From the UHGV virus genome UHGV-2017536: 17,594 bases of DNA; one strand, written 5' to 3'. The position numbers were made by a program, and so were the translations under genes. The notes below the pieces were generated by a model. It was not told where the DNA came from and did no database searches. It was given only the letters and a program-made list of their open reading frames with translations. Numbering within the stretch: position 1 is the stretch's first letter; each line of letters opens with the position of its first letter. Shown here one piece after another: positions 1 to 17,594 of this stretch. The DNA comes from a virus.

Positions 1-93
1 TTGATTACAATACTTGCCACCCAAATTAGGGAAGCGAAAAATGAGTTGAAAACGACTATAAAAGTGCTTTCCAAATTTGAAAAGCGGTCGTAA
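1..93 (+). CDS. 3' end of a gene that starts upstream of the window (C-terminal ~30 aa, ...IREAKNELKTTIKVLSKFEKRS*). Product unknown.
   Basis: Open frame from the window edge to a TAA at 91-93. The charged, helical-looking tail is the only evidence. Confidence 0.3.
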   Translation: MITILATQIREAKNELKTTIKVLSKFEKRS

Positions 94-140
94 TAGAGAA
101 CGGAATATGGATTTATAGAATGAAACGACTTTTACTCTCT

Positions 141-171
141 TAGGGTATACGGTATTTTACCGTATACCCTA
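141..171. repeat. Near-perfect palindrome TAGGGTATACGGTA-ttt-TACCGTATACCCTA (13-14 bp stem). Candidate bidirectional terminator or operator.
   Basis: Read directly from the sequence. It lies about 50 nt downstream of the partial + strand gene and about 90 nt downstream of the minus-strand gene at 264-497. Confidence 0.7.
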
Positions 172-263
172 ATTCTGCTTAGAATCCCTTTGTGGTGTAA
201 AACAAAATATCTGGGGAAACACAGCAGCCAGACCTTTATATCTCTGTGACAATATAAAGCAAA

Positions 264-497
264 TTATAGTGCAGCTTTTTCTACAAACTTTAGTTCTTTT
301 CCGCATAATTCCAAAATTACATATAGCTGATTGAGAGTAAATCGCTTTGGGTCACTTTTTCGTTCTGCTAGAGATGCCTTACTTAATCCAATATATGCCG
401 CTAATTCATCGTCATTGAAATTGTTTCTAATTTTTGCTTCAGCAACAAGAACGCGAATATCATCAAGTTGCCGCTCCATTTTATTATTTTTTCTCAT
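264..497 (-). CDS. Small HTH-like DNA-binding protein (77 aa). Function unknown.
   Basis: ORF with AAAGGAT 8 nt upstream of the ATG. The segment ELAAYIGLSKASLAERKSDPKRFTLNQLYVILELCG resembles an XRE-type helix-turn-helix. Confidence 0.45.
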   Translation of the reverse strand: MRKNNKMERQLDDIRVLVAEAKIRNNFNDDELAAYIGLSKASLAERKSDPKRFTLNQLYVILELCGKELKFVEKAAL

Positions 498-559
498 TTA
501 AAATATCCTTTGCATTATGAACTATATGTTTACTTTGCTCTTGAATATAGCTAGATTCT

Positions 560-700
560 ATAAAAAGGTCTGCCCAATTTTGAGGAGACCCCAATCCGCT
601 GGTTATGTTTTGGTTTACGCTGGTGCTCATGTTTCTATTAGGTGTCGTGTTTCGCGACACCCTACGGGGGTACGGCGTTCTACAGTACCCTATGCTGCAT
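560..700. other. Cluster of three stem-loops in a 212-bp gap with no credible coding capacity. The stems are GGTCT..AGACC, GGTGTCG-tgtttcg-CGACACC and GGGTAC-ggcgttctaca-GTACCC.
   Basis: Perfect 5-7 bp stems read from the sequence. The overlapping ORFs on both strands (484-732 minus, 517-708 plus) look spurious. Confidence 0.4.
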
Positions 701-709
701 TCGTTTAAG

Positions 710-982
710 TTACATTCCAAATAAATCCGCATGGGTTCCGGTTCGCTGCAACAGCAATTCTGTTTCGGTTTGCTGGTAAATCAATAACCAATCGGGCTGC
801 AAATGGCATTCTCTGTAACCGACATAGTTTCCTGATAAATTATGGTCCTTATTCTTTTCTGGCAATGGGGCCGGGATTCTTAATGTGTCAACTGCATTCT
901 GAAATATGGATACATCAAGGCCGCGTTTCACACAAGTTTTGAAATCTTTCTTGAATCTGGTAGAATACCGCACATCTAACAT
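710..982 (-). CDS. yafQ: Type II toxin, RelE/YafQ family mRNA interferase.
   Basis: The 90-aa product aligns by eye to E. coli YafQ. HNLSGNYVGYRECHLQPDWLLIYQ...LLLQRTGTHADLF matches HPLQGSWKGYRDAHVEPDWILIYK...LRFERTGTHAALF. It sits 2 nt downstream of a DinJ-like antitoxin gene. Confidence 0.8.
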   Translation of the reverse strand: MLDVRYSTRFKKDFKTCVKRGLDVSIFQNAVDTLRIPAPLPEKNKDHNLSGNYVGYRECHLQPDWLLIYQQTETELLLQRTGTHADLFGM

Positions 983-984
983 GG

Positions 985-1194
985 TCAGTCCTCCATCAGT
1001 TCGTTTATAAGGTCCTCGGTGCTTCCGGTAAAAAGATGGCCTCCCCCGTTCTCTAGCTCTGCAAATGCTTCCAATGTTTCAGTATTGGGTATTTCATCCG
1101 GGATAGCAGCTCCTTGGAGATATGGGATTATGAAAACAAGCTTACCTTCGGGAATCTGGTCAATTAAGCTTTTGGCTAAGTCTCTATTACTCAT
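985..1194 (-). CDS. dinJ: Type II antitoxin, RelB/DinJ family.
   Basis: 69 aa. The C-terminal ETLEAFAELENGGGHLFTGSTEDLINEL resembles the toxin-binding tail of DinJ/RelB. It lies immediately upstream of the yafQ-like gene on the same strand. Confidence 0.7.
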   Translation of the reverse strand: MSNRDLAKSLIDQIPEGKLVFIIPYLQGAAIPDEIPNTETLEAFAELENGGGHLFTGSTEDLINELMED

Positions 1195-1221
1195 AGTTTT
1201 AAGCTCCTTTCTGCAATGATA

Positions 1222-1779
1222 TCAAAGTTTTAATTGGCTAAAGTCAATGGAAAAATCCTCATATATGTTGACCTTAACAGAATCGTTGAATCGGTAAATG
1301 GTGGGGGGAGTTTCATTCGGAAAATCATAGACCACAATAATTTCCCTAGCTGGGTCTACAATCCAGTATTCCCGTACCCCCGCGCCCTGATAGAGGGCCA
1401 GCTTTTTATAATAGTCCATCTGGCGGCTGGAAGGGGATACAATTTCTATAATCCAATCCGGCGCACCATTGCAGCCCTTACTGTTCAATTTGTCTTTGTC
1501 GCAAATAACGGATATATCTGGCTCCAGGTAGTTTGTATTATTCTTTTCATCCTCTGCCTGGAGGAACACGGCAAACGGAGCCGGGAATACCTCGCAGGAA
1601 CCATTATTGTTGCGGATGTGGTTTCCTATCTCCAGGTGCAGGAATGACAATGTTCTTTGATGCGCTGTGCTGGGTGGGGCCATGTAATAAATCTGTCCGT
1701 TAATTAGTTCAGCCCGTTCACCTTCTGGCAGATTGTAAATATCGTCAATGGTATGGATTCTTTCTTTTGGTAATGGCAT
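1222..1779 (-). CDS. Uma2-family (DUF820) PD-(D/E)XK putative endonuclease.
   Basis: 185 aa. The family signature PDISVICDKD...APDWIIEIVSPSS...KLALYQGAGVREYWIVDP is present. The start sits 4 nt after the stop of the XRE gene, with GGAAGGAG upstream, so the two form an operon. Confidence 0.85.
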   Translation of the reverse strand: MPLPKERIHTIDDIYNLPEGERAELINGQIYYMAPPSTAHQRTLSFLHLEIGNHIRNNNGSCEVFPAPFAVFLQAEDEKNNTNYLEPDISVICDKDKLNSKGCNGAPDWIIEIVSPSSRQMDYYKKLALYQGAGVREYWIVDPAREIIVVYDFPNETPPTIYRFNDSVKVNIYEDFSIDFSQLKL

Positions 1780-1783
1780 AGGG

Positions 1784-2014
1784 TCACACTCCTTCCTGTG
1801 GATGTGGTTGTTCTGGTATATACTCCATTAGGTCCCCGGGCTGACAACATAGAAGCTGACATAGCTTTTCAAGGGATTCTGTTCCTAAGTTTCCTTTACC
1901 GTTTTTTAAATTGTAGTAAGTTTGTTGGCCGATTATCTTATTTTGACGTAAATAATAGGTTGTTATGTTTTTATCTTCTAATAGTTTGAATAGTTTTTCA
2001 TAGCTTATGGGCAT
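1784..2014 (-). CDS. Small XRE-family HTH transcriptional regulator (76 aa).
   Basis: ISYEKLFKLLEDKNITTYYLRQNKIIGQQTYYNLKNGKGNLGTESLEKLCQLLCCQPGDLMEY is a typical short Cro/C1-type HTH. It is the first gene of a two-gene operon with the Uma2 nuclease. Confidence 0.75.
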   Translation of the reverse strand: MPISYEKLFKLLEDKNITTYYLRQNKIIGQQTYYNLKNGKGNLGTESLEKLCQLLCCQPGDLMEYIPEQPHPQEGV

Positions 2015-2089
2015 TTTGTACCTTCTTTCATTGTCTAATAAGTGTGTCCAAATAATTTAACTCTTTTCATTATATTAATATTATATCAA

Positions 2090-2215
2090 ACGATATACAC
2101 TTTTACAAGTGCACAAAATACACAAATAGCAGCATGAAATATGGTCAAATATTTGTGTATATAGTCAATAGAATATGGTCAAGAAATAGTGTATAATGTA
2201 GTTACAAGGTTAAGA
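2090..2215. promoter_or_regulatory. Divergent promoter and operator region between the XRE gene and the 67-aa gene. It carries direct repeats of AATATGGTCAA, and a -10 TGTATAATG at about 2190 drives the + strand gene.
   Basis: GAAATATGGTCAA and GAATATGGTCAA occur 25 bp apart. TATAAT lies at 2193-2198. A minus-strand TTGTAA-17-TATAAT promoter for the XRE gene lies near 2060-2100. Confidence 0.5.
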
Positions 2216-2397
2216 AAAACAAGAGCAGCCGGGGCAGACAATCCCCCACAAACCTATCAATCGTACCTGTGAGCCGAAAGCAATAGACACGCAAGACTGA
2301 TAGGGGTTGCGGATTCAATTCCGGTGAGGATGTACCAAGGATGGCGAACAATAGCCTGGTGAGAATCAACCATTTATTATGAAAAGGAGATTATGAT

Positions 2398-2601
2398 ATG
2401 AGTACAATGGACTACATTGACATTCAGTGTCCAACTGCTGCGGAAATGTTTGGATTGATGCCAAAAGGCAGTAGCAGGCCATTAAGATTTGAAATATTGG
2501 GGTATGCAGAGTTAGAAGATGGACAGCGCTTCCCGATTTTGGGGAAAATCGTTCCGATTAATAAAACGATTCCTGTCAAGTTGGGAGAAATAGAGAAATA
2601 A
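2398..2601 (+). CDS. Hypothetical 67-aa protein.
   Basis: Strong RBS AAAGGAGATTATGATATG. It is followed by a rho-independent terminator and preceded by an approximately 200-nt leader. Confidence 0.5.
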   Translation: MSTMDYIDIQCPTAAEMFGLMPKGSSRPLRFEILGYAELEDGQRFPILGKIVPINKTIPVKLGEIEK

Positions 2602-2654
2602 TCAAAATCAAAATAAAGCTGATGGAAAAAGATATTAAGATAGGTTAAATTATT

Positions 2655-2693
2655 GAGAACACTGATTTTAAAACAAGATTAGTGTTCTTTTCT
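2655..2693 (+). terminator. Rho-independent terminator AGAACACT-(17 nt)-AGTGTTCT followed by TTTTC.
   Basis: 8-bp perfect stem plus a T-run, 55 nt after the stop of the 67-aa gene. Confidence 0.65.
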
Positions 2694-2847
2694 ATATATC
2701 CAAAAACCCATTCGCATACTTTACGAAAGTAGTGAACGGGCCTTTGGATATATATCATATTTAAGTAAAGGTATTATTTCTTTATATAGTGACCGGAGCT
2801 GTATATTTTGTGCAAGTATTGGATTTTGTTTAATCCGTATTCCATAA

Positions 2848-3069
2848 TTAGATTTCCTTCCGCGCCTGCATCGTGTCACGATTCATTGTTTCGTCTATGG
2901 CACGATTAATAAAGGAATTTAATGTTTCTCCGCTTAATTCAGCATGAGCTTTTATTTCTTCTTTTTTCCCTTTGGGTTTTACGGTTAATTCGATGCGGTC
3001 ATAATTTCGTTTCACATATTCATGCACTGCCTTTTGCTGCGCTTTGCTGATTTTGCTATCCTCTGGCAT
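2848..3069 (-). CDS. Ribbon-helix-helix (CopG/Arc-type) DNA-binding protein.
   Basis: A beta-strand-like YDRIELTVKPKG is followed by the helices KKEEIKAHAELSGETLNSFINRAIDE. The start at 3069 has GAAGGTG 6 nt upstream. The alternative ATG at 3087 has no RBS. Confidence 0.6.
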   Translation of the reverse strand: MPEDSKISKAQQKAVHEYVKRNYDRIELTVKPKGKKEEIKAHAELSGETLNSFINRAIDETMNRDTMQARKEI

Positions 3070-3140
3070 TTTAACACCTTCTTTCATTTTTAGGTAAATA
3101 GAGTGGCGAATAATAAATACACCTTCTCTACCATACCAAT

Positions 3141-3250
3141 ATTATAGCAAAAAAGTCTATTCACGTAAATATACAAAATTCACAAATATATTCACGTAAA
3201 TATATAAATGATGCCAATAGACTATTCACGTGAATAGATATATAATGTAG
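3141..3250. promoter_or_regulatory. Operator and promoter region. It holds two direct copies of TATTCACGTAAATA (3158-3171, 3189-3202) and the perfect palindrome TATTCACGTGAATA (3223-3236), which abuts the -10 TATAAT at 3241-3246.
   Basis: Repeats read from the sequence. The palindromic site overlaps the -35 region of the promoter for the 110-aa gene. Copy 1 overlaps the divergent minus-strand promoter (TATAAT on the minus strand near 3141-3146) of the RHH gene. The pattern suggests autoregulation plus repression of the cargo gene by the RHH protein. Confidence 0.5.
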
Positions 3251-3380
3251 TTATAAGGATGAAACAAACGAACAACCCGAAAAGTTGTGAAGCTGAAAAC
3301 CATATACCTGTAAGTGAGCAATAGAGCAAAACCAATAGCCAGGAAGATGATTCAGCCGGACAAGGAAGGAGACAGAAATC

Positions 3381-3713
3381 ATGAAGTACAATCTTCAAAA
3401 AATCATGCTGAGAGCATGGAGGCTTTACCGGGAGAAAAAAGAACTTTCTTTTGCAGAGTGTTTACACCGGGCATGGTTATCTGCAAAGGCAGAGGCAATC
3501 AACGCAAAGAGAATTGAAGAAGCAAAGGCCACGGCAGGAGTTGAGGAAGAAACAAATACCTGGAACGGCTGGAAGCAGTTAGGATATGAAGTCATTCATG
3601 GAAGCAAGGCCCTGTTTGGTACTGAACTGATATGGGGAAGCCGGGGAGATGGGAAAGCTTATAAGGCCAGATTCTTTGGGCGCTCACAGGTACAGGAAAT
3701 TGCAATAGCATAA
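3381..3713 (+). CDS. Hypothetical 110-aa protein, probably mobile-element cargo.
   Basis: Strong RBS GGAAGGAGACAGAAATCATG. It is followed at 3770-3815 by the hairpin GGGGCCG...CGGCCCC. Confidence 0.55.
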   Translation: MKYNLQKIMLRAWRLYREKKELSFAECLHRAWLSAKAEAINAKRIEEAKATAGVEEETNTWNGWKQLGYEVIHGSKALFGTELIWGSRGDGKAYKARFFGRSQVQEIAIA

Positions 3714-3912
3714 GAAAAAGCCTCTGCCAGTGCTACCAACACTGACAGGGGCCAACGAAACAGCCGGGGCCGTTCCTAATCACATAGGTATATTAGCACG
3801 GCCCCTAATAAAAGTAAAGAGTTGATAGAATAAATAATTTTGGAAAAGTTATTGACTTTTTGGGCTACATGAATTAACATATATTTATGGGCTACAGAAA
3901 GGGGGTGACAGG

Positions 3913-4089
3913 GTGAGTCCAAGGACTGGTAGACCGCCAGCAGAAAAACCTAAATCAAATCCCATCCATGTTCGGCTTGATAATGAAAGCCTTAAAATTC
4001 TTGATAAGTATTGCAAGCAAGAAAATATAAAGCGAACAGAGGGAATACGACAAGGAATTAAATTGCTGGAAGGTAACATGAAAAAATAG
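3913..4089 (+). CDS. CopG-family ribbon-helix-helix protein (58 aa, GTG start).
   Basis: SPRTGRPPAEKPKSNPIHVRLDNESLKILDKYCKQENIKRTEGIRQGIKLLEG matches the PRTGRP...RLxxE...L...C...SRSEAIR pattern of small CopG-like regulators. RBS AAGGGGG, promoter TTGACT-17-TAACAT at 3853-3881, and TGGGCTACA repeated twice upstream. It is absent from the ORF track only because it is shorter than 60 aa. Confidence 0.6.
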   Translation: MSPRTGRPPAEKPKSNPIHVRLDNESLKILDKYCKQENIKRTEGIRQGIKLLEGNMKK

Positions 4090-4270
4090 AAACAGTCGTC
4101 CCCTACCAAAGTTCAGACCGTTTCTATCACTCTATCAATACAGAAGTGTACTGATAAATCTATTCTATCTGTATTTCTGTATTACGTCAAGTAAAATCCC
4201 ATTAAAGGTCTTTAAATAATAAGAGGGTAACTGTGTAATAAGCTCCCCCATTTTTTTAGAAAGAGGTAAA

Positions 4271-4762
4271 TTGAAAATGTATCATTTAATTGATGAAAAA
4301 AGAAGATTATACGCTTGCAACGTGGCAGAAATTACACTGGAGGATTCGTATTGTATATTGCAGTCATGGGGTGGTGAGCATTCGCTATCAGAGGTATTGG
4401 TATTCTATTCCGTGACACAGAACGCAGTTGTTATAAATGAGAATTGCAAGGATTTTAATAGTATTGTTAAGTTATGCCGGGGCTTTTTGGATGCAGATGC
4501 AGAAACATTGGAAGATGTTGAAGCGAGCAACCTTGAAGGAAACACATGGGAGCTGGTTTGTCGTGTGCTGCTGGAAGCAAGAGGGATGATGGACTTTAAA
4601 GACAATATGGATATGCTTTCCCATCAGAAGCCTGGGAAGGAATATAACTTAATGGACTGGCGTACATATAATCACTTGATGCAGGAGCAGCAGTTTTTTA
4701 AGATATTCCAGTATGGCGTTATCATGGGTAAAAGGACTGAACGGGCAAGGAGGGCAAAGTAA
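4271..4762 (+). CDS. Hypothetical 163-aa protein. I recognise no domain.
   Basis: RBS AAAGAGG. Its stop overlaps the start of the next gene (TAAATG), so the two are translationally coupled. Confidence 0.6.
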   Translation: MKMYHLIDEKRRLYACNVAEITLEDSYCILQSWGGEHSLSEVLVFYSVTQNAVVINENCKDFNSIVKLCRGFLDADAETLEDVEASNLEGNTWELVCRVLLEARGMMDFKDNMDMLSHQKPGKEYNLMDWRTYNHLMQEQQFFKIFQYGVIMGKRTERARRAK

Positions 4763-5479
4763 ATGCACTATCCAATTAATATAGAGATGCTTATGGGGAT
4801 GGCCCAGACAGCCGGAATAAGTGACCTGTCAAAGAAGCTTTTAGGGCAGATGGCAAGGGCGTTAAATAATATATATAAGATGGGTATGGAGTATTCAACC
4901 GAGGATTTTGTTTTCACGCCCGAAATCGTAAGGGAAGCGCACCAGAGGGTATATGGTAAGCTTTTAACGAATGAAGAAGCAGACCAGCAATTCTATGAAT
5001 TATTATCTGAATGGGGAAACGATGCGTTTCAGGCAGGTGCAGCTAATGATAAACATACTGTCAGGTTATCCAGTATATCTATTTCCAGAAGAAATTCCGG
5101 TTCAAGGCCAACAAAAAAGAAGATGGAACAGGCTAGGAGGTTCTATGAAAAGTACGGCGTATATAAAAGGGAAATTGTGATTGATGAACACGGGGTATTG
5201 ATGGATGGATATACCACATATCTACTTATGTGTGAACAAGGTAAGGATATGGTTTCAGCAAGACGAATAAAGCGGCAAGGAATTACAGCGGTGTTCAATG
5301 AAGGGGGTAAAGCATATCAGTGGGAAATTCCCTTGAAATTGATAGATAAGATAGCTCCGGGGGATAGGGTGGTAGTGGAAACATTTTATGGACCGCAGCA
5401 AGTGACGGTTAAAGAGATTATCCCTCTTGCCAAAAGAACAGGCCGAAAGGTGAGGCGAATAGGAGAAAAACCGAACTAA
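4763..5479 (+). CDS. Hypothetical 238-aa protein with a central region resembling a degenerate ParB/Srx N-terminal domain.
   Basis: ISISRRNSGSRP...KKKMEQARRFYEKYGVYKREIVIDEHGVLMDGYTTYLLMCEQG follows the ParB-N layout (I..NPxNpR ... SI..xG ... PIvV ... y.iiDGhHRl.A...G). The GHHR arginine box is replaced by GYTT. The domain assignment is an inference. Confidence 0.55.
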   Translation: MHYPINIEMLMGMAQTAGISDLSKKLLGQMARALNNIYKMGMEYSTEDFVFTPEIVREAHQRVYGKLLTNEEADQQFYELLSEWGNDAFQAGAANDKHTVRLSSISISRRNSGSRPTKKKMEQARRFYEKYGVYKREIVIDEHGVLMDGYTTYLLMCEQGKDMVSARRIKRQGITAVFNEGGKAYQWEIPLKLIDKIAPGDRVVVETFYGPQQVTVKEIIPLAKRTGRKVRRIGEKPN

Positions 5480-5525
5480 CCAAAGTCCCAGGATGTCATT
5501 TATATATGGCAGACTGGGGCATTTT

Positions 5526-5547
5526 TTTGACTAACATTTGACTAACA
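5526..5547. repeat. Arm-type direct repeats (P arm), two tandem copies of TTTGACTAACA.
   Basis: The same 11-mer recurs three times at 5788-5817 on the other side of the tRNA-derived core. The arrangement is typical of integrase arm-type binding sites. Confidence 0.6.
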
Positions 5548-5600
5548 AAGTTGTATTAAGAAAAATTGGGAGAAAATAGAATATAGCCTTGAAATGGCCT

Positions 5601-5787: not shown

Positions 5788-5817
5788 TTTGACTAACATT
5801 TGACTAACATTGACTAA
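5788..5817. repeat. Arm-type direct repeats (P' arm): TTTGACTAACA TTTGACTAACA TTGACTAA. The last copy overlaps the integrase stop codon.
   Basis: Read from the sequence. Same motif as 5526-5547. Confidence 0.6.
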
Positions 5818-7174: not shown

Positions 7175-7204
7175 CATCTGCTGGGCGGCATGGATGAATG
7201 GAAA
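7175..7204. repeat. Direct repeat copy 1, TCAT(CTG)CTGGGCGGCATGGATGAATGGAAA, in the int 5' UTR.
   Basis: 24-nt identity with 8131-8159. Read from the sequence. Confidence 0.7.
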
Positions 7205-7229: not shown

Positions 7230-7805
7230 TTAGTCTTTTTTCCTGTATTCCGGTATTTTCGTAAGTAATTCTAGCTGTTTAATGGTTCTGGTTATTTCTT
7301 CGTCAGCTTTCTTTTGACCTTCTTCGTTTAACATTGCATAATATTGTGCGAAAGAATCTCCTATGCTTCTTAAGGCTCTTTCCAGATAAGCTGATTTGAA
7401 TATGGATTCCTGCGGCGTCAGTTCTTCTCCACGGTCAGTTTTCTGCATAATTCCATTAAACTTCAAATCATCAAGATTTTTTTCATTATGGATATCATCA
7501 TTAGTGTGTAAAGGCGTTGTAAATCTAGGAACAGTTGTCATTTCTGTATCTCCTAGAAATCTAGCTCTATTTTCCCATGATTCAGAAGTTATATCTGGTA
7601 GTGGAAAACTATCGTCTAATAGTATATAAAGAGCAATATCAAACACCTTTGCTATTTTCTTCATTGTATCTAAATTAGGTTCTCGTTTTCCATTTTCCCA
7701 GTTATAAACAGCGTTTTGCGAAACATTTAAAGAGTCAGCGAGTTGTTTTTGAGTTAGACCTTTATCCGTACGTAACTTCTTTAATCTATTTGGAATATCT
7801 GACAT
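7230..7805 (-). CDS. cI-like prophage repressor, XRE HTH N-terminal domain (191 aa).
   Basis: The N-terminus LKKLRTDKGLTQKQLADSLNVSQNAVYNWENGKREPNLDTMKKIAKVF is a canonical HTH_XRE. It is transcribed divergently from the cro-like gene. RBS AAAGGAGGTG. Confidence 0.85.
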   Translation of the reverse strand: MSDIPNRLKKLRTDKGLTQKQLADSLNVSQNAVYNWENGKREPNLDTMKKIAKVFDIALYILLDDSFPLPDITSESWENRARFLGDTEMTTVPRFTTPLHTNDDIHNEKNLDDLKFNGIMQKTDRGEELTPQESIFKSAYLERALRSIGDSFAQYYAMLNEEGQKKADEEITRTIKQLELLTKIPEYRKKD

Positions 7806-7934
7806 ACTCGCACCTCCTTTTTAAACATAATAGCAAATTGGTGTAATATTTGCAATGCTATATTGACATTATAGCGTATTGGTGATACAATGTCAATATA
7901 AACACCAATATGGTGTAACCAAGGAGGCGAGATA
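7806..7934. promoter_or_regulatory. Lysis-lysogeny switch. PR is TTGACA (7863-7868), a 17-nt spacer, TACAAT (7886-7891), reading rightward. The divergent PRM is TTGCAA (7850-7855) and TATTAT (minus strand, 7827-7832). There are three operators with a TGGTG core: 7833-7855, 7861-7900 and 7901-7918.
   Basis: The operators are CAAATTGGTGTAATATTTG, TATTGACATT-atagcgtattggtgatac-AATGTCAATA and ACACCAATATGGTGT. Each is palindromic and overlaps the promoter elements. Confidence 0.7.
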
Positions 7935-8129
7935 GTGAAGCTTAGTAGAGACAAAATAAATGTTGCTATGGCGAGAAAAGCCCTTACTGTTACGAATCTG
8001 GCGGAAAAGTATGGAGTGAGCCGGGCGCGTATGAATGTCATTTTAAATAGTCGTGAAGTCACAGCAATATGTGCTGGACGTATGGCTAACAGTCTTGAAG
8101 TTGATGTGACTGAAATTTTAGAGGATTAA
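7935..8129 (+). CDS. Cro-like small HTH regulator (64 aa, GTG start).
   Basis: ARKALTVTNLAEKYGVSRARMNVILNS is an HTH. RBS AAGGAGG 6 nt upstream. It lies downstream of PR. Confidence 0.75.
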   Translation: MKLSRDKINVAMARKALTVTNLAEKYGVSRARMNVILNSREVTAICAGRMANSLEVDVTEILED

Positions 8130-8130
8130 A

Positions 8131-8159
8131 TCATGCTGGGCGGCATGGATGAATGGAAA
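8131..8159. repeat. Direct repeat copy 2, TCATGCTGGGCGGCATGGATGAATGGAAA, between the cro gene and the xis-like gene.
   Basis: Matches 7175-7204. Confidence 0.7.
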
Positions 8160-16183: not shown

Positions 16184-16440
16184 TATCACCAACTTATCGT
16201 AACGTGTCGGTGGGACAGGCACGTTAGAATTACTCTTGTCGCTGGGTTATGCAAAGCTGATTAAGATAATGGTACTGGCCTGGGGCGGTGAAATACCGGG
16301 TCAGTATTTTTCTACCCCAGGACAATCAGATAATGCTTTATGATATCATAGTTTGAAACTGCGCAAAAGTGCGCACAAAAAAAGAATAGACTAAACTAAA
16401 CGCTATCCCTCTGCCGGTATCAACTATAGGCACATATACG

Positions 16441-16506
16441 TTGACGAATGCACAAAATGCACTAAAATGCATACAAAAAAAGCCCAGGTCAAAAATGAGG
16501 TATAAT
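16441..16506 (+). promoter_or_regulatory. Promoter-like elements TTGACG-17-TAAAAT (16441-16468) and TATAAT (16501-16506), upstream of the antirepressor remnant. They sit inside a highly structured 390-bp intergenic region.
   Basis: Hexamers read from the sequence. The flanking IRs are TAACGTG..CACGTTA (16199-16225), CCTGGGG-29 nt-CCCCAGG (16280-16325) and GCGCA-aaag-TGCGC (16360-16373). Confidence 0.4.
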
Positions 16507-16577: not shown

Positions 16578-17594
16578 GTGGAAAACGATTTGTTAGGCCT
16601 GGACAATACTGGAATGAGTTAGGACAGTAGAGACTGAGAATGAGGTTTACTTCGTTGGAAAGGATATAGCTGGCATCCTCGGGTACCAAAACGGTAGTCG
16701 AGATATTAACCGCCATGTAGACGAAGATGACAGGCGCAAAGTTATGTTTTTTGACGGGAATCAGGATAAGGAAACTATTATCATTAACGAATCCGGGCTT
16801 TATTCCCTGGTGCTTTCTAGTAAGTTGCCAAATGCGAAAAAATTTAAGCGTTGGGTAACAAGTGAAGTCCTCCCCTCTATCCGCAAAAATGGTGGCTATA
16901 TCTCCGGGCATACCTGACGGATTTCACGGCCGAAAATTCGGCAGCCAAAAAATACTTTTTTCCCAAAATGGAATAAAGAGGCAAGTAAGAGAGTTACATG
17001 ATGGACTGGAAATCAAGAGCAACTTCACGACATGGTTTGACCGTATGTGTGAGAATGGTTTAACTGAAAACGATTATACGGTTATGTGGAGCGATTCCAA
17101 AAATGGAAACGCTGTAGAGTTTGAGAAAATGCGGATTACATATTGGTTACTCAAAAAAAAGAAACCAATAATCCAAAGAATCCGGTGACGGAATTTACTG
17201 ACTATCAGATTTCAGTAGACATGGCAAAACAGATTTGCATGAGGGATTGGAGATTAGAACTGAATTCGCAAAGTGGTTTTCAAGGATGTGTAAGTACGGT
17301 TTTTTCAATAAAATGGACTATTTTAGAGGTTATCGTCAAAAATGACAAAAACTCAAAAGGCGGTAGGCAGCAACAGATTTATATGATTTACTTTGGAAGT
17401 GATGAAATGACCAGCGTACTTACACCTCCGGAGGTTCAAAACAACGGCGGTGTGCAGATTAGAGAGCTTCAAGACTATATTGTTTCTGTTGACACAGCAA
17501 AGCATATCTGCCTTATTAGCCGCACAGAAAAAGGCAAGCAATGGTCAGACCATTGACATGCTGAAGGGCGAAAACACCGTTCTTCTGGAGGATG
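16578..17594 (+). pseudogene. Bro-N-domain phage antirepressor, disrupted. The reading frame changes at least four times and runs off the window.
   Basis: GTG at 16578 with AAGGGGG upstream gives VENDLLGLDNTG, matching NELQVFNFEGNS. After a 1-nt shift near 16614, frame 1 gives VRTVETENEVYFVGKDIAGILGY...IIINESGLYSLVLSSKLPNAKKFKRWVTSEVLPSIRKNGGY, a canonical Bro-N domain. Downstream, the C-terminal motifs HDGLEIKSNFTTWFDRMC / HEGLEIRTEFAKWFSRMC and DYQISVDMAKQIC / DYIVSVDTAKHIC...EKGKQW lie in frames 2, 1, 3 and 1. Confidence 0.55.

Follow-up and report, generated by a model that had tools for sequence, protein, structure and literature searches.

What keeps one stretch of sequence between promoter and first gene in two neighbouring cassettes whose regulators, operators and cargo all differ? 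The question is raised by positions 2,090 to 3,380 of the virus genome UHGV-2017536, of which the whole stretch analysed here, 17,594 nucleotides (nt) long, is called the window. It represents a ~17.6-kb element that is integrative and phage-like. A first-pass annotation had described two regulator-plus-cargo cassettes with a common promoter-leader, here A and B, and that description holds: their leaders are two diverged members of one RNA family, whose covariance model finds leader A at E=1e-7 and leader B at E=1e-10. Regulator/operator, leader and cargo modules are shuffled among natural variants of the locus. The parts of the two cassettes, in positions of the window, are the following.

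1784-2014, minus strand: regulator of cassette A, a 76-amino-acid (aa) XRE-family helix-turn-helix (HTH) protein (Pfam HTH_26, E=3.8e-14; PHROG transcriptional repressor)
2080-2108, minus strand: predicted promoter-like site of the XRE gene, TTGTAA-17-TGnTATAAT (consensus scan, 10 of 12 matches)
2139-2148, 2159-2168 and 2173-2182: operator-like direct repeats of cassette A, ATATGGTCAA, ATATAGTCAA and ATATGGTCAA, in this order (from the sequence; repeat family D1)
2169-2174 and 2192-2197, plus strand: promoter P_A, -35 TAGAAT, 17-nt spacer and -10 TATAAT, with the common initial-transcribed block to 2209 (from the sequence)
2223-2314, plus strand: leader A, three-way-junction RNA (cmsearch with model R1, 35.8 bits, E=1.2e-7)
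2311-2367, plus strand: second, tandem core of leader A, GGAUUC-AAU-UCCGG-UGAG-[variable]-CAAUAG-C-CUGG-UGA-GAAUC
2398-2601, plus strand: cargo A, a 67-aa ORFan protein (open reading frame, ORF; ribosome-binding site, RBS, AAAGGAG at 2383-2389)
2657-2687, plus strand: intrinsic terminator closing cassette A (dG -12.7 kcal/mol and U-tract; terminator scans)
2848-3069, minus strand: regulator of cassette B, a 73-aa ribbon-helix-helix (RHH)-like protein (ORF; phrog_13890)
3141-3169, minus strand: promoter-like site of the RHH-like gene, TTTACG-17-TGnTATAAT (consensus scan, 10 of 12 matches)
3158-3171, 3189-3202 and 3223-3236: operator-like palindromes of cassette B, TATTCACGTRAATA (repeat families D2 and D4; from the sequence)
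3218-3246, plus strand: promoter P_B, TAGACT-17-TATAAT, with the common initial-transcribed block to 3258 (consensus scan, 10 of 12 matches)
3266-3363, plus strand: leader B, same RNA motif (cmsearch with model R1, 47.9 bits, E=9.6e-11)
3381-3713, plus strand: first gene of cargo B, a 110-aa protein of a large uncharacterised family (RBS GGAAGGAG at 3364-3371)

Local alignment of the intergenic regions 2015-2397 and 3088-3380 scores 47, compared with 21.3 +/- 2.8 for dinucleotide shuffles (z=9), and the part upstream of the -10 box alone still gives z=3.4. For the leader part downstream of the common 18-mer alone the value is z=1.7, which is not significant. The pairwise similarity of A and B is therefore real but rests on the promoter scaffold: the whole intergenic region lies well above the chance level of AT-rich DNA, the leader by itself does not. 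Pairwise leader alignment was for this reason rejected as a proof of homology, significance being reached only via the family model. The 18-mer TATAATGTAGTTAYAAGG, which forms the -10/start block, has exactly two copies in the window (2192-2209 and 3241-3258), where 0.06 would be expected by chance. Its scan of 596 Gb of genome contigs returned 40 matches, which by our own arithmetic is about the chance number for ~17.5 specified bases on two strands; only those in loci L004, L025 and L018 are truly related, and several others belong to an unrelated Ruminococcus response-regulator promoter. We consequently discarded it as a family signature. It is a good promoter/start sequence, not a specific marker.

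The scaffold extends upstream to the Shine-Dalgarno (SD) sequence, RBS and start region of the regulators (1995-2032 and 3051-3088). It also holds the -10 box of the divergent regulator promoter in both cassettes, an A-rich block ACAAAATWCACAAATA (2113-2128 and 3173-3188) and a -35 region that reads CAATAGAMTAT in both. Into this common scaffold the operators are inserted, and they are wholly unlike, as had been noticed before: three direct repeats of consensus ATAT(G/A)GTCAA in A versus the TATTCACGTRAATA palindromes in B. The last A repeat (2173-2182) overlaps the -35 box and spacer of P_A, whose start is predicted near 2204 from the consensus. Repeats of the A type accompany homologous XRE genes in L054, L059, L065, L066, L069, L070 and L073. 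The B palindromes are spaced by 31 and 34 bp; the first overlaps the -35 box of the regulator promoter and the third lies between the -35 and -10 boxes of P_B, for which a start near 3253 is predicted. Each cassette thus has one operator at or inside the -35/spacer region of its cargo promoter. Elsewhere in the window, boxes of the form AAAnTGCRCnAAAATGCRYACAAAAAAAG are repeated at 16356-16482, upstream of an antirepressor-like region, and are 78% similar to the XRE promoter region at 2095-2126. A third cassette near 16.4 kb, considered because of repeat D8, was rejected: there is neither an R1 match nor the common -10 block.

Protein comparison confirms that cargo A and cargo B are unrelated, and the same is true of the two regulators. 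The XRE assignment of regulator A is firm (HTH_26, 53.1 bits against a cutoff of 22). The RHH assignment of regulator B is suggested by matches that all stay below threshold (TacA1, E=0.07; RHH_7, E=1.3e-4 for a cluster relative), and a search of PDB sequences gave no match; its start at 3069 is preceded by the SD sequence GAAGGTG, and the upstream ATG at 3087 has none. The 67-aa cargo A has only 11 close homologue clusters and no match in Pfam, NCBIfam or PHROG. The 110-aa protein has 2392 homologues, all of them hypothetical. It matched nothing in Pfam or among PDB sequences, with weak sub-threshold matches to an AcrIIA3 family (E=5.8e-4) and to a PHROG of unknown function. Its AF2 model (pLDDT 63) is confident in the N-terminal helices alone and poor in the C-terminal half.

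The leaders were approached through other loci. Homologues of the 110-aa protein led to 11 viral and 80 metagenomic loci (numbered with the letter L), of which the 260 nt upstream of each homologue were compared; a scan of IMG/VR with the core pattern added 74 more. Invariance of the core among L134-L207 is imposed by this search pattern, and the protein-sampled set L054-L133 is unbiased for the core. Leaders preceding the 110-aa gene are nearly always long (130-200 nt), conserved, situated behind a TATAAT box and of few classes, and they vary far less than the operators do. An invariant core, CAUAUACCUGUGAG-[7-30 nt]-CAAUAG-N-CAGGAAGAUG, recurs in leaders of the A type, the B type and intermediate types, flanked by segments that vary in sequence and keep their complementarity.

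The structure comes from A4, a plain MAFFT alignment of 17 diverse leaders from other loci, none of them from the window. The fold is a three-way junction in which P1 has 5 bp and P2 has 3+2 bp with a GNRA-like CGAAA loop. P3 (7 bp and three closing pairs) is followed by the internal loop AUAUA/AAGAU and by P4 (4 bp, CCUG/CAGG), which closes the UGAG-[variable]-CAAUAG loop. Standard pairs fill 98% of the paired cells in A4, versus 84.5% in shuffles and ~46% when the partner is slid by one column, and 15 of the 24 pairs have changes on both sides, a number reached by none of 500 shuffles. RNAalifold recovered P3, the closing pairs and P4 independently from a broader alignment of 37 sequences. 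The closing pair is C-G in 29 sequences and A-U in 8, with zero exceptions. Compensatory changes are found in 21 of 24 pairs in a model-fitted alignment of 43 distinct sequences. In the protein-sampled set, TNCCTGTGA, AATAG and CANG are kept in at least 90% of 43 distinct sequences. We consider the existence of one structured, covarying three-way-junction RNA family practically certain. In many lineages there is an extra helix, P0, in which the first transcript nucleotides pair with a stretch just 5' of the SD sequence, and several different sequence pairs form it. That RNA of the sense strand is the folded molecule is favoured by the conserved GAAA-type loop, by the purine-rich conserved loops, by the promoter-to-RBS position and by agreement of single-sequence RNA folds with the consensus.

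Covariance model R1 was built from A4, hence without window sequences, and the whole window was searched with cmsearch with filters off. There are exactly two significant matches, both on the plus strand, and no other below E=0.8. Leader A forms P1 (2225-2230/2305-2310), P2 (2231-2234/2243-2246), P3 (2253-2259/2298-2304) and P4 (2266-2269/2288-2291), with UGAG at 2270-2273, CCGAAAG and CAAUAG at 2281-2286 in its loop; the single-sequence minimum-free-energy fold gives the same P1, P2 and P3. The second core of leader A is weak alone (partial R1 match at 2321-2359, E=0.9), and in L134, L142, L183, L189 and L201 this additional core is found behind B-type motifs. Leader B has P2 (3273-3276/3284-3287, loop CCGAAAA), P3 (3292-3297/3351-3356) and the closing pair C3301-G3349. 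Then come the internal loop AUAUA 3302-3306 / AAGAU 3344-3348, P4 (3307-3310/3340-3343) and a terminal loop that runs from UAAGUGAG through CAAUAG at 3333-3338. Its minimum-free-energy fold gives P3, the closing pairs and P4. The suspicion of an RNA element in the leader was thus well placed.

The individual blocks by which the leaders had been matched need correction. Block ACCTGTRAGYGAGCAATAGA fits B (3306-3325); its counterpart in A, ACCTGTGAGCCGAAAGCAATAGA, has 3 nt more. Both leaders do contain CAATAGCCWGG (2349-2359 in A, 3333-3343 in B), but its copies are not collinear, because in A it is part of the second tandem core and in B of the first. The first-pass annotation had further read the leaders as conserved after duplication. 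In the structural alignment they are only 43% identical, and each has relatives elsewhere with 94-99% identity (for leader A, copies 94-98% identical in L054-L059 and L042-L044). We conclude that A and B are old, independently assembled family members and not products of a local duplication. A common DNA site for a second regulator, offered as another reason for the conservation, is not needed to explain it.

R1 matches in the fetched loci number 145 (69 + 76). In the loci retrieved through a protein or DNA match, motif and downstream gene share a strand for all 69 matches; those pattern-fetched motifs that were oriented and checked each have a same-strand ORF or terminator behind them. Most motifs directly adjoin a -10 box on their 5' side and end 5-50 nt short of an SD sequence. 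The regulators divergent from them come from at least three families, RHH-like, HTH_26 and HTH_3. What follows the motif as first gene is varied: the 110-aa family, 91-93-aa coiled-coil proteins, HD, ASCH-like and GP88-like proteins, replication organisers and XRE proteins, and in the viral set it is often other than the 110-aa family. Because the cargo is so heterogeneous, the RNA is seen to go with the promoter slot and not with one protein.

Several variants were seen along the way. In one lineage of phage contigs of ~100-200 kb (L139, L145, L158, L168 and L203), the P3-P4 core occurs alone, with no P1 or P2, ~35 nt past an ORF stop and directly before a terminator-like hairpin (in L139 on the minus strand, ~4663-4771); it may be a 3'-untranslated-region (UTR) or stand-alone small-RNA version of the motif. 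L105 and L127 (2811-2908 and the next ~60 nt) have two minimal cores in tandem, GCGAUAUACCUGUGAGGGAAAGGAAAGUACCAAUAGUCACGAAGGUCGC and then a second copy, also with no P1 or P2. A different leader, class C/D, occupies the same promoter-to-RBS slot, ~130 nt upstream of a 110-aa homologue, in L047, L064, L066, L068-L070, L072, L073, L075, L076, L078, L085-L087, L090, L091, L096, L106, L108, L130 and L133. It is unrelated to the motif in sequence, begins with ACAGCGAAGG and finishes with CCUGCCGGRGCUGU; RNAalifold assigns it 17 pairs, 6 of them with compensatory changes, and Rfam has no match for it.

The supposed plug-in layout can be watched directly in natural variants, in which every module is found exchanged. 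Leader A stands behind three regulator/operator sets: that of the window, that of L042, L044 and L056, and that of L043 and L041, where an RHH-type regulator (70% DNA identity, different operators) is ahead of it. It directly precedes the 110-aa gene in L042-L044 and L054-L059, with at least three different operator sets ahead of it, and the 110-aa gene in turn can follow leader A, leader B, a diverged B-type leader or a leader of an unrelated class. In L054-L057 and L059, blastn joins window position 2377/2379 straight to 3366, which puts leader A right against the RBS of the 110-aa gene. The segment missing there is the following.

2380-3365, plus strand: RBS, 67-aa gene, terminator, RHH gene, P_B and leader B

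From these direct joins it follows that the window carries an extra 986-bp unit. Its junctions (2379/2380 and 3365/3366) lie at the leader/SD boundary, outside both motifs, and the motifs flanking them are not hybrids: leader A is of the A type from end to end, and leader B remains of the B type. Such a position argues against a role in site-specific recombination. Another natural variant, L045 / L052 / L177 (IMGVR_UViG_2721755796_000007), has lost window positions 2600-2678 and 3056-3251, that is, part of the 67-aa gene terminator, the 5' end of the RHH gene, all B operators and P_B. With P_B deleted, leader B and the 110-aa operon could be read there only through from P_A.

Descriptions of the motif did not turn up in keyword literature searches, in the 224-motif paper or in the 50-genome paper. 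It was also not found in 200 of the 408 supplementary files of a microbiome catalogue, where an unnamed earlier prediction is possible (Fremin & Bhatt 2021, PMC8040213). Rfam 15 gave zero matches at gathering threshold for the window and for 20 related loci; at E<=10, window positions 1950-3950 gave chance matches only, and the best-scoring members L089 and L047 gave only miRNA-type matches, on palindromic operators. The structure resembles the orphan riboswitch candidates and structured 5'-UTR motifs of the Breaker and Weinberg catalogues in its multi-stem junction, conserved loops, 5'-UTR location and comparative discovery, but it has no coherent association with a gene pathway and no Rfam 15 match.

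Two well-known promoter-proximal cis-acting RNAs of phage early operons are put and nut, both cited in PMC11658703. Like putL and putR of HK022, which are factor-independent processive antiterminators, our motif is a folded RNA encoded right behind early promoters that a repressor controls in a temperate element. It is likewise small (about 70-100 nt), has helices with conserved internal loops and is present in two copies per element. It differs in having no sequence or model match to put, in being a three-way junction where put is two stem-loops, and in that downstream terminators that would need to be overridden are rare at its loci. With nut of lambda and P22, a boxA and a boxB hairpin bound by N, it shares the promoter-proximal position before the first early gene, and the GNRA-like GAAA(A) loop of P2 resembles boxB; however, no boxA was seen (no boxA search was made), no N-like protein was identified, and the invariant part of the motif is the P3-P4 arm, not the GNRA hairpin. 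Firmicutes mobile elements offer a further parallel in cis-acting antiterminator RNAs located in the 5' part of repressor-gated operons, conAn2 of pLS20 (PMC8191782) and the promoter-proximal canT of Tn916 (PMC11658703). These are 340-450 nt or 'large', compared with ~100 nt for the leader motif, and no conserved covarying consensus has been published for them; conAn2 follows the conAn1 gene, whereas the motif precedes the first gene, in a phage-like integrative element. The cassettes as a whole recall the mosaic immunity regions of temperate phages, with a small repressor divergent from an early promoter, three operators ~3 helical turns apart that overlap both promoters, and module exchange between relatives. 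Here, by contrast, two tandem switches lie at the integrase-proximal end, besides the main cI/cro-like pair of the element (7230-8129), and both feed the same RNA family.

We propose that each cassette would be a small genetic switch assembled from exchangeable modules: an autoregulated divergent repressor, its own operators over conserved back-to-back sigma-A-type promoters, the -10/initial-transcribed block, a structured leader RNA and cargo. Once the promoter is derepressed, the leader RNA would act in cis on the new transcript as a second, post-initiation checkpoint. Its invariant terminal loop and internal loop may bind a macromolecular partner while the RNA emerges. This partner might be the transcribing RNA polymerase, following the logic of HK022 put, or a host or element protein, following that of lambda nut/boxB, and once bound it would govern transcript elongation, transcript stability or translation in the early operon. 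The RNA family with its structure, its constant sense-strand location after the promoter and before the RBS, and the shuffled modules are observations. Modular switch cassettes with a cis-acting checkpoint leader RNA are, in our judgement, the best overall explanation of them, one in which we place slightly more belief than doubt. The specific mechanism, invariant loops that bind RNA polymerase or a protein in a post-initiation checkpoint, is put forward more tentatively, at a little below even chances.

A number of points weigh against this proposal. Transcription starts are deduced from consensus promoters only. Within 3 kb past the motif, predicted intrinsic terminators on the sense strand are rare: 254 kb contain 61, and 58 of 96 loci have none. 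Operon B has zero predicted ones between 3381 and 5479, before its final one, so it is not apparent that antitermination would be required. In cassette A, one 67-aa gene is the whole cargo, and a terminator-proof polymerase would override the terminator behind it. P1 of leader B is reduced to C3269-G3358 and G3270-C3357, and helix P0 was sought in both window leaders and is absent. Counting G-U versus A-C appositions, tried as a way to pick the folded strand, does not discriminate; much of the A-C signal seems to stem from B-type junctions that had to be forced into a three-way-junction model. Finally, the lone cores that sit between an ORF and its terminator in L139 and similar contigs do not fit a strictly promoter-proximal role.

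Many of the same features would also suit a riboswitch aptamer that senses a small host metabolite or alarmone and turns the early genes on in a suitable physiological state. The multi-stem junction with invariant nucleotides in internal and terminal loops, its GNRA-type loop and covarying stems are aptamer-like, and the fold ends in the 5' UTR 5-50 nt from the SD sequence. The tandem cores of leader A, L105/L127 and the L134-type leaders are reminiscent of cooperative riboswitches, and a second, structurally different leader class in the same slot is reminiscent of multiple classes for one ligand. An expression platform was, however, not found: between motif and RBS there is neither a terminator nor an SD-sequestering structure, predicted sense terminators come no closer than 332 nt downstream, and both window leaders are purine-rich with no anti-SD stretch. 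As the downstream genes also have no common metabolic theme and Rfam riboswitch matches are zero, we hold a riboswitch to be unlikely.

Alternatively, the folded RNA could be the product itself and act in trans, for instance as a small regulatory RNA or as a decoy or sponge that captures a host protein such as a nuclease or a sensor of defence. The stand-alone cores with their own terminator in L139, L145, L158, L168 and L203 speak for it, as does the occurrence of the motif before unrelated cargo in up to two copies per leader. An entry or anti-defence expression context would also be in line with a relative of the 110-aa operon in Enterocloster clostridioformis, which adjoins an integrase with a Tn916-type N-terminal domain and has a weak match to Lar (restriction alleviation) by that integrase. 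Nevertheless, the Lar match is weak and its locus has no R1 motif, and ~90% of motif instances lie exactly between promoter and RBS. P0, which links the 5' end to the pre-RBS segment in many lineages, suggests coupling to the mRNA, and neither a processing signal nor a partner was identified. An autonomous RNA appears to us distinctly unlikely.

A paired 5' end is a classical block to 5'-exonucleolytic decay in Firmicutes, and the leader might accordingly be a generic 5' stabiliser or spacer, similar by common descent of the promoter-leader scaffold with no specific recognition. P0 pairs the extreme 5' end in many relatives, the SD sequence is left free, and the pairwise similarity of leaders A and B is weak, all of which would agree with this. 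It leaves unexplained, however, the nucleotides kept in at least 90% of the protein-sampled set, the compensatory changes in four helices, the retention of the core amid exchange of all its surroundings and the lack of P0 in the window leaders, and we regard it as improbable. It is barely credible that the motif functions at the DNA level, where a folded single strand would be the site of recombination or priming (attC-like or sso-like) for cassette insertion: segment 2380-3365 does end in a second motif copy, superficially like an integron cassette with its attC, and the G-U versus A-C counts exclude neither strand, but the junctions fall outside the non-hybrid motifs at an SD-like AAGGAG, orientation is tied to promoter and gene in all sampled loci, and GAAA-type loops point to RNA.

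As for the remainder of the element, its end (17386-17594) runs on into window position 1, as seen by blastn against related loci in L055 and L059. Since this continuation is present in two metagenome contigs, we take the window for a circular permutation of the ~17.6-kb element. IMG/VR relatives measure 15-18 kb, and megablast of window positions 1-5600 against plasmids and phages gave no match. The gene content comprises an integrase, the cI/cro-like pair, a DnaD-like loader, a DnaB helicase, a 990-aa protein, the antirepressor-like region, toxin-antitoxin genes, Uma2 genes and the two regulator cassettes. Features around the cassettes are listed below.

264-497: HipB-like HTH gene, upstream of cassette A
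710-982: YafQ/RelE-type toxin gene, upstream of cassette A
985-1194: putative antitoxin of 69 aa, adjoining the YafQ/RelE-type toxin
1222-1779: Uma2-family endonuclease gene, upstream of cassette A
4271-5521, plus strand: rest of operon B, with 163-aa and 238-aa genes and a terminator at 5485-5521 (ORFs; weak DUF5839 match; terminator dG -20.7)
7230-8129: main cI/cro-like pair of the element

A link between the 163-aa protein and the Lar-like protein of Enterocloster was looked for and not found. Within operon B, segment 3822-4257 is missing from L004, L054-L062 and others, where 3821 is joined to 4258. It contains a 58-aa repressor-like gene (3913-4089; phrog_876, aCcr1-family match) with its own promoter-like site and looks like another inserted regulator module. 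A minus-strand terminator-like hairpin with a U-tract (3719-3753, dG about -22) abuts the stop of the 110-aa gene, and upstream of it there is no convincing minus-strand gene. The stretch from the operon B terminator to the integrase gene contains two exact copies of the 22-nt sequence TTTGACTAACATTTGACTAACA, which is in turn an 11-mer in tandem; they lie 262 bp apart, at 5526-5547 and 5788-5809, and are candidates for integrase arm or att sites. On both sides of the cI-like/cro-like module (7179-7204 and 8134-8159) there is a copy of an exact 26-nt repeat, TGCTGGGCGGCATGGATGAATGGAAA, which could be a module-exchange scar or a common regulatory site.

Taken together, the motif family is apparently undescribed, abundant and located in shuffled repressor-switch cassettes of mobile elements of gut Clostridia. 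To our knowledge, promoter-proximal structured RNAs of mobile elements are rare and mechanistically rich, with put, nut, conAn2 and canT as the examples, and we know of almost nothing of this kind in Lachnospiraceae and Oscillospiraceae. These two families dominate the human gut. The motif is short and strongly covarying, precedes replication, recombination and accessory genes of many phage-like elements, and is a testable candidate for a new class of riboswitch, antiterminator or protein-binding RNA. The locus is at the same time a clean natural case of plug-and-play switches, in which repressor/operator, promoter core, leader RNA and cargo are exchanged independently. Such exchange is useful for understanding the evolution of mobile elements and as a source of parts for synthetic circuits in anaerobes. 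We also consider it possible, though doubtful, that the three-way junction and the class C/D leader are new functional RNA classes which form a second switch behind the repressor in temperate and integrative elements of gut Clostridia. They could modify RNA polymerase in a factor-independent way, sense the state of the host, or serve as decoys that capture a host protein of defence or RNA decay. If this is true, a widespread layer of post-initiation control over the early genes of mobile elements has gone unnoticed.

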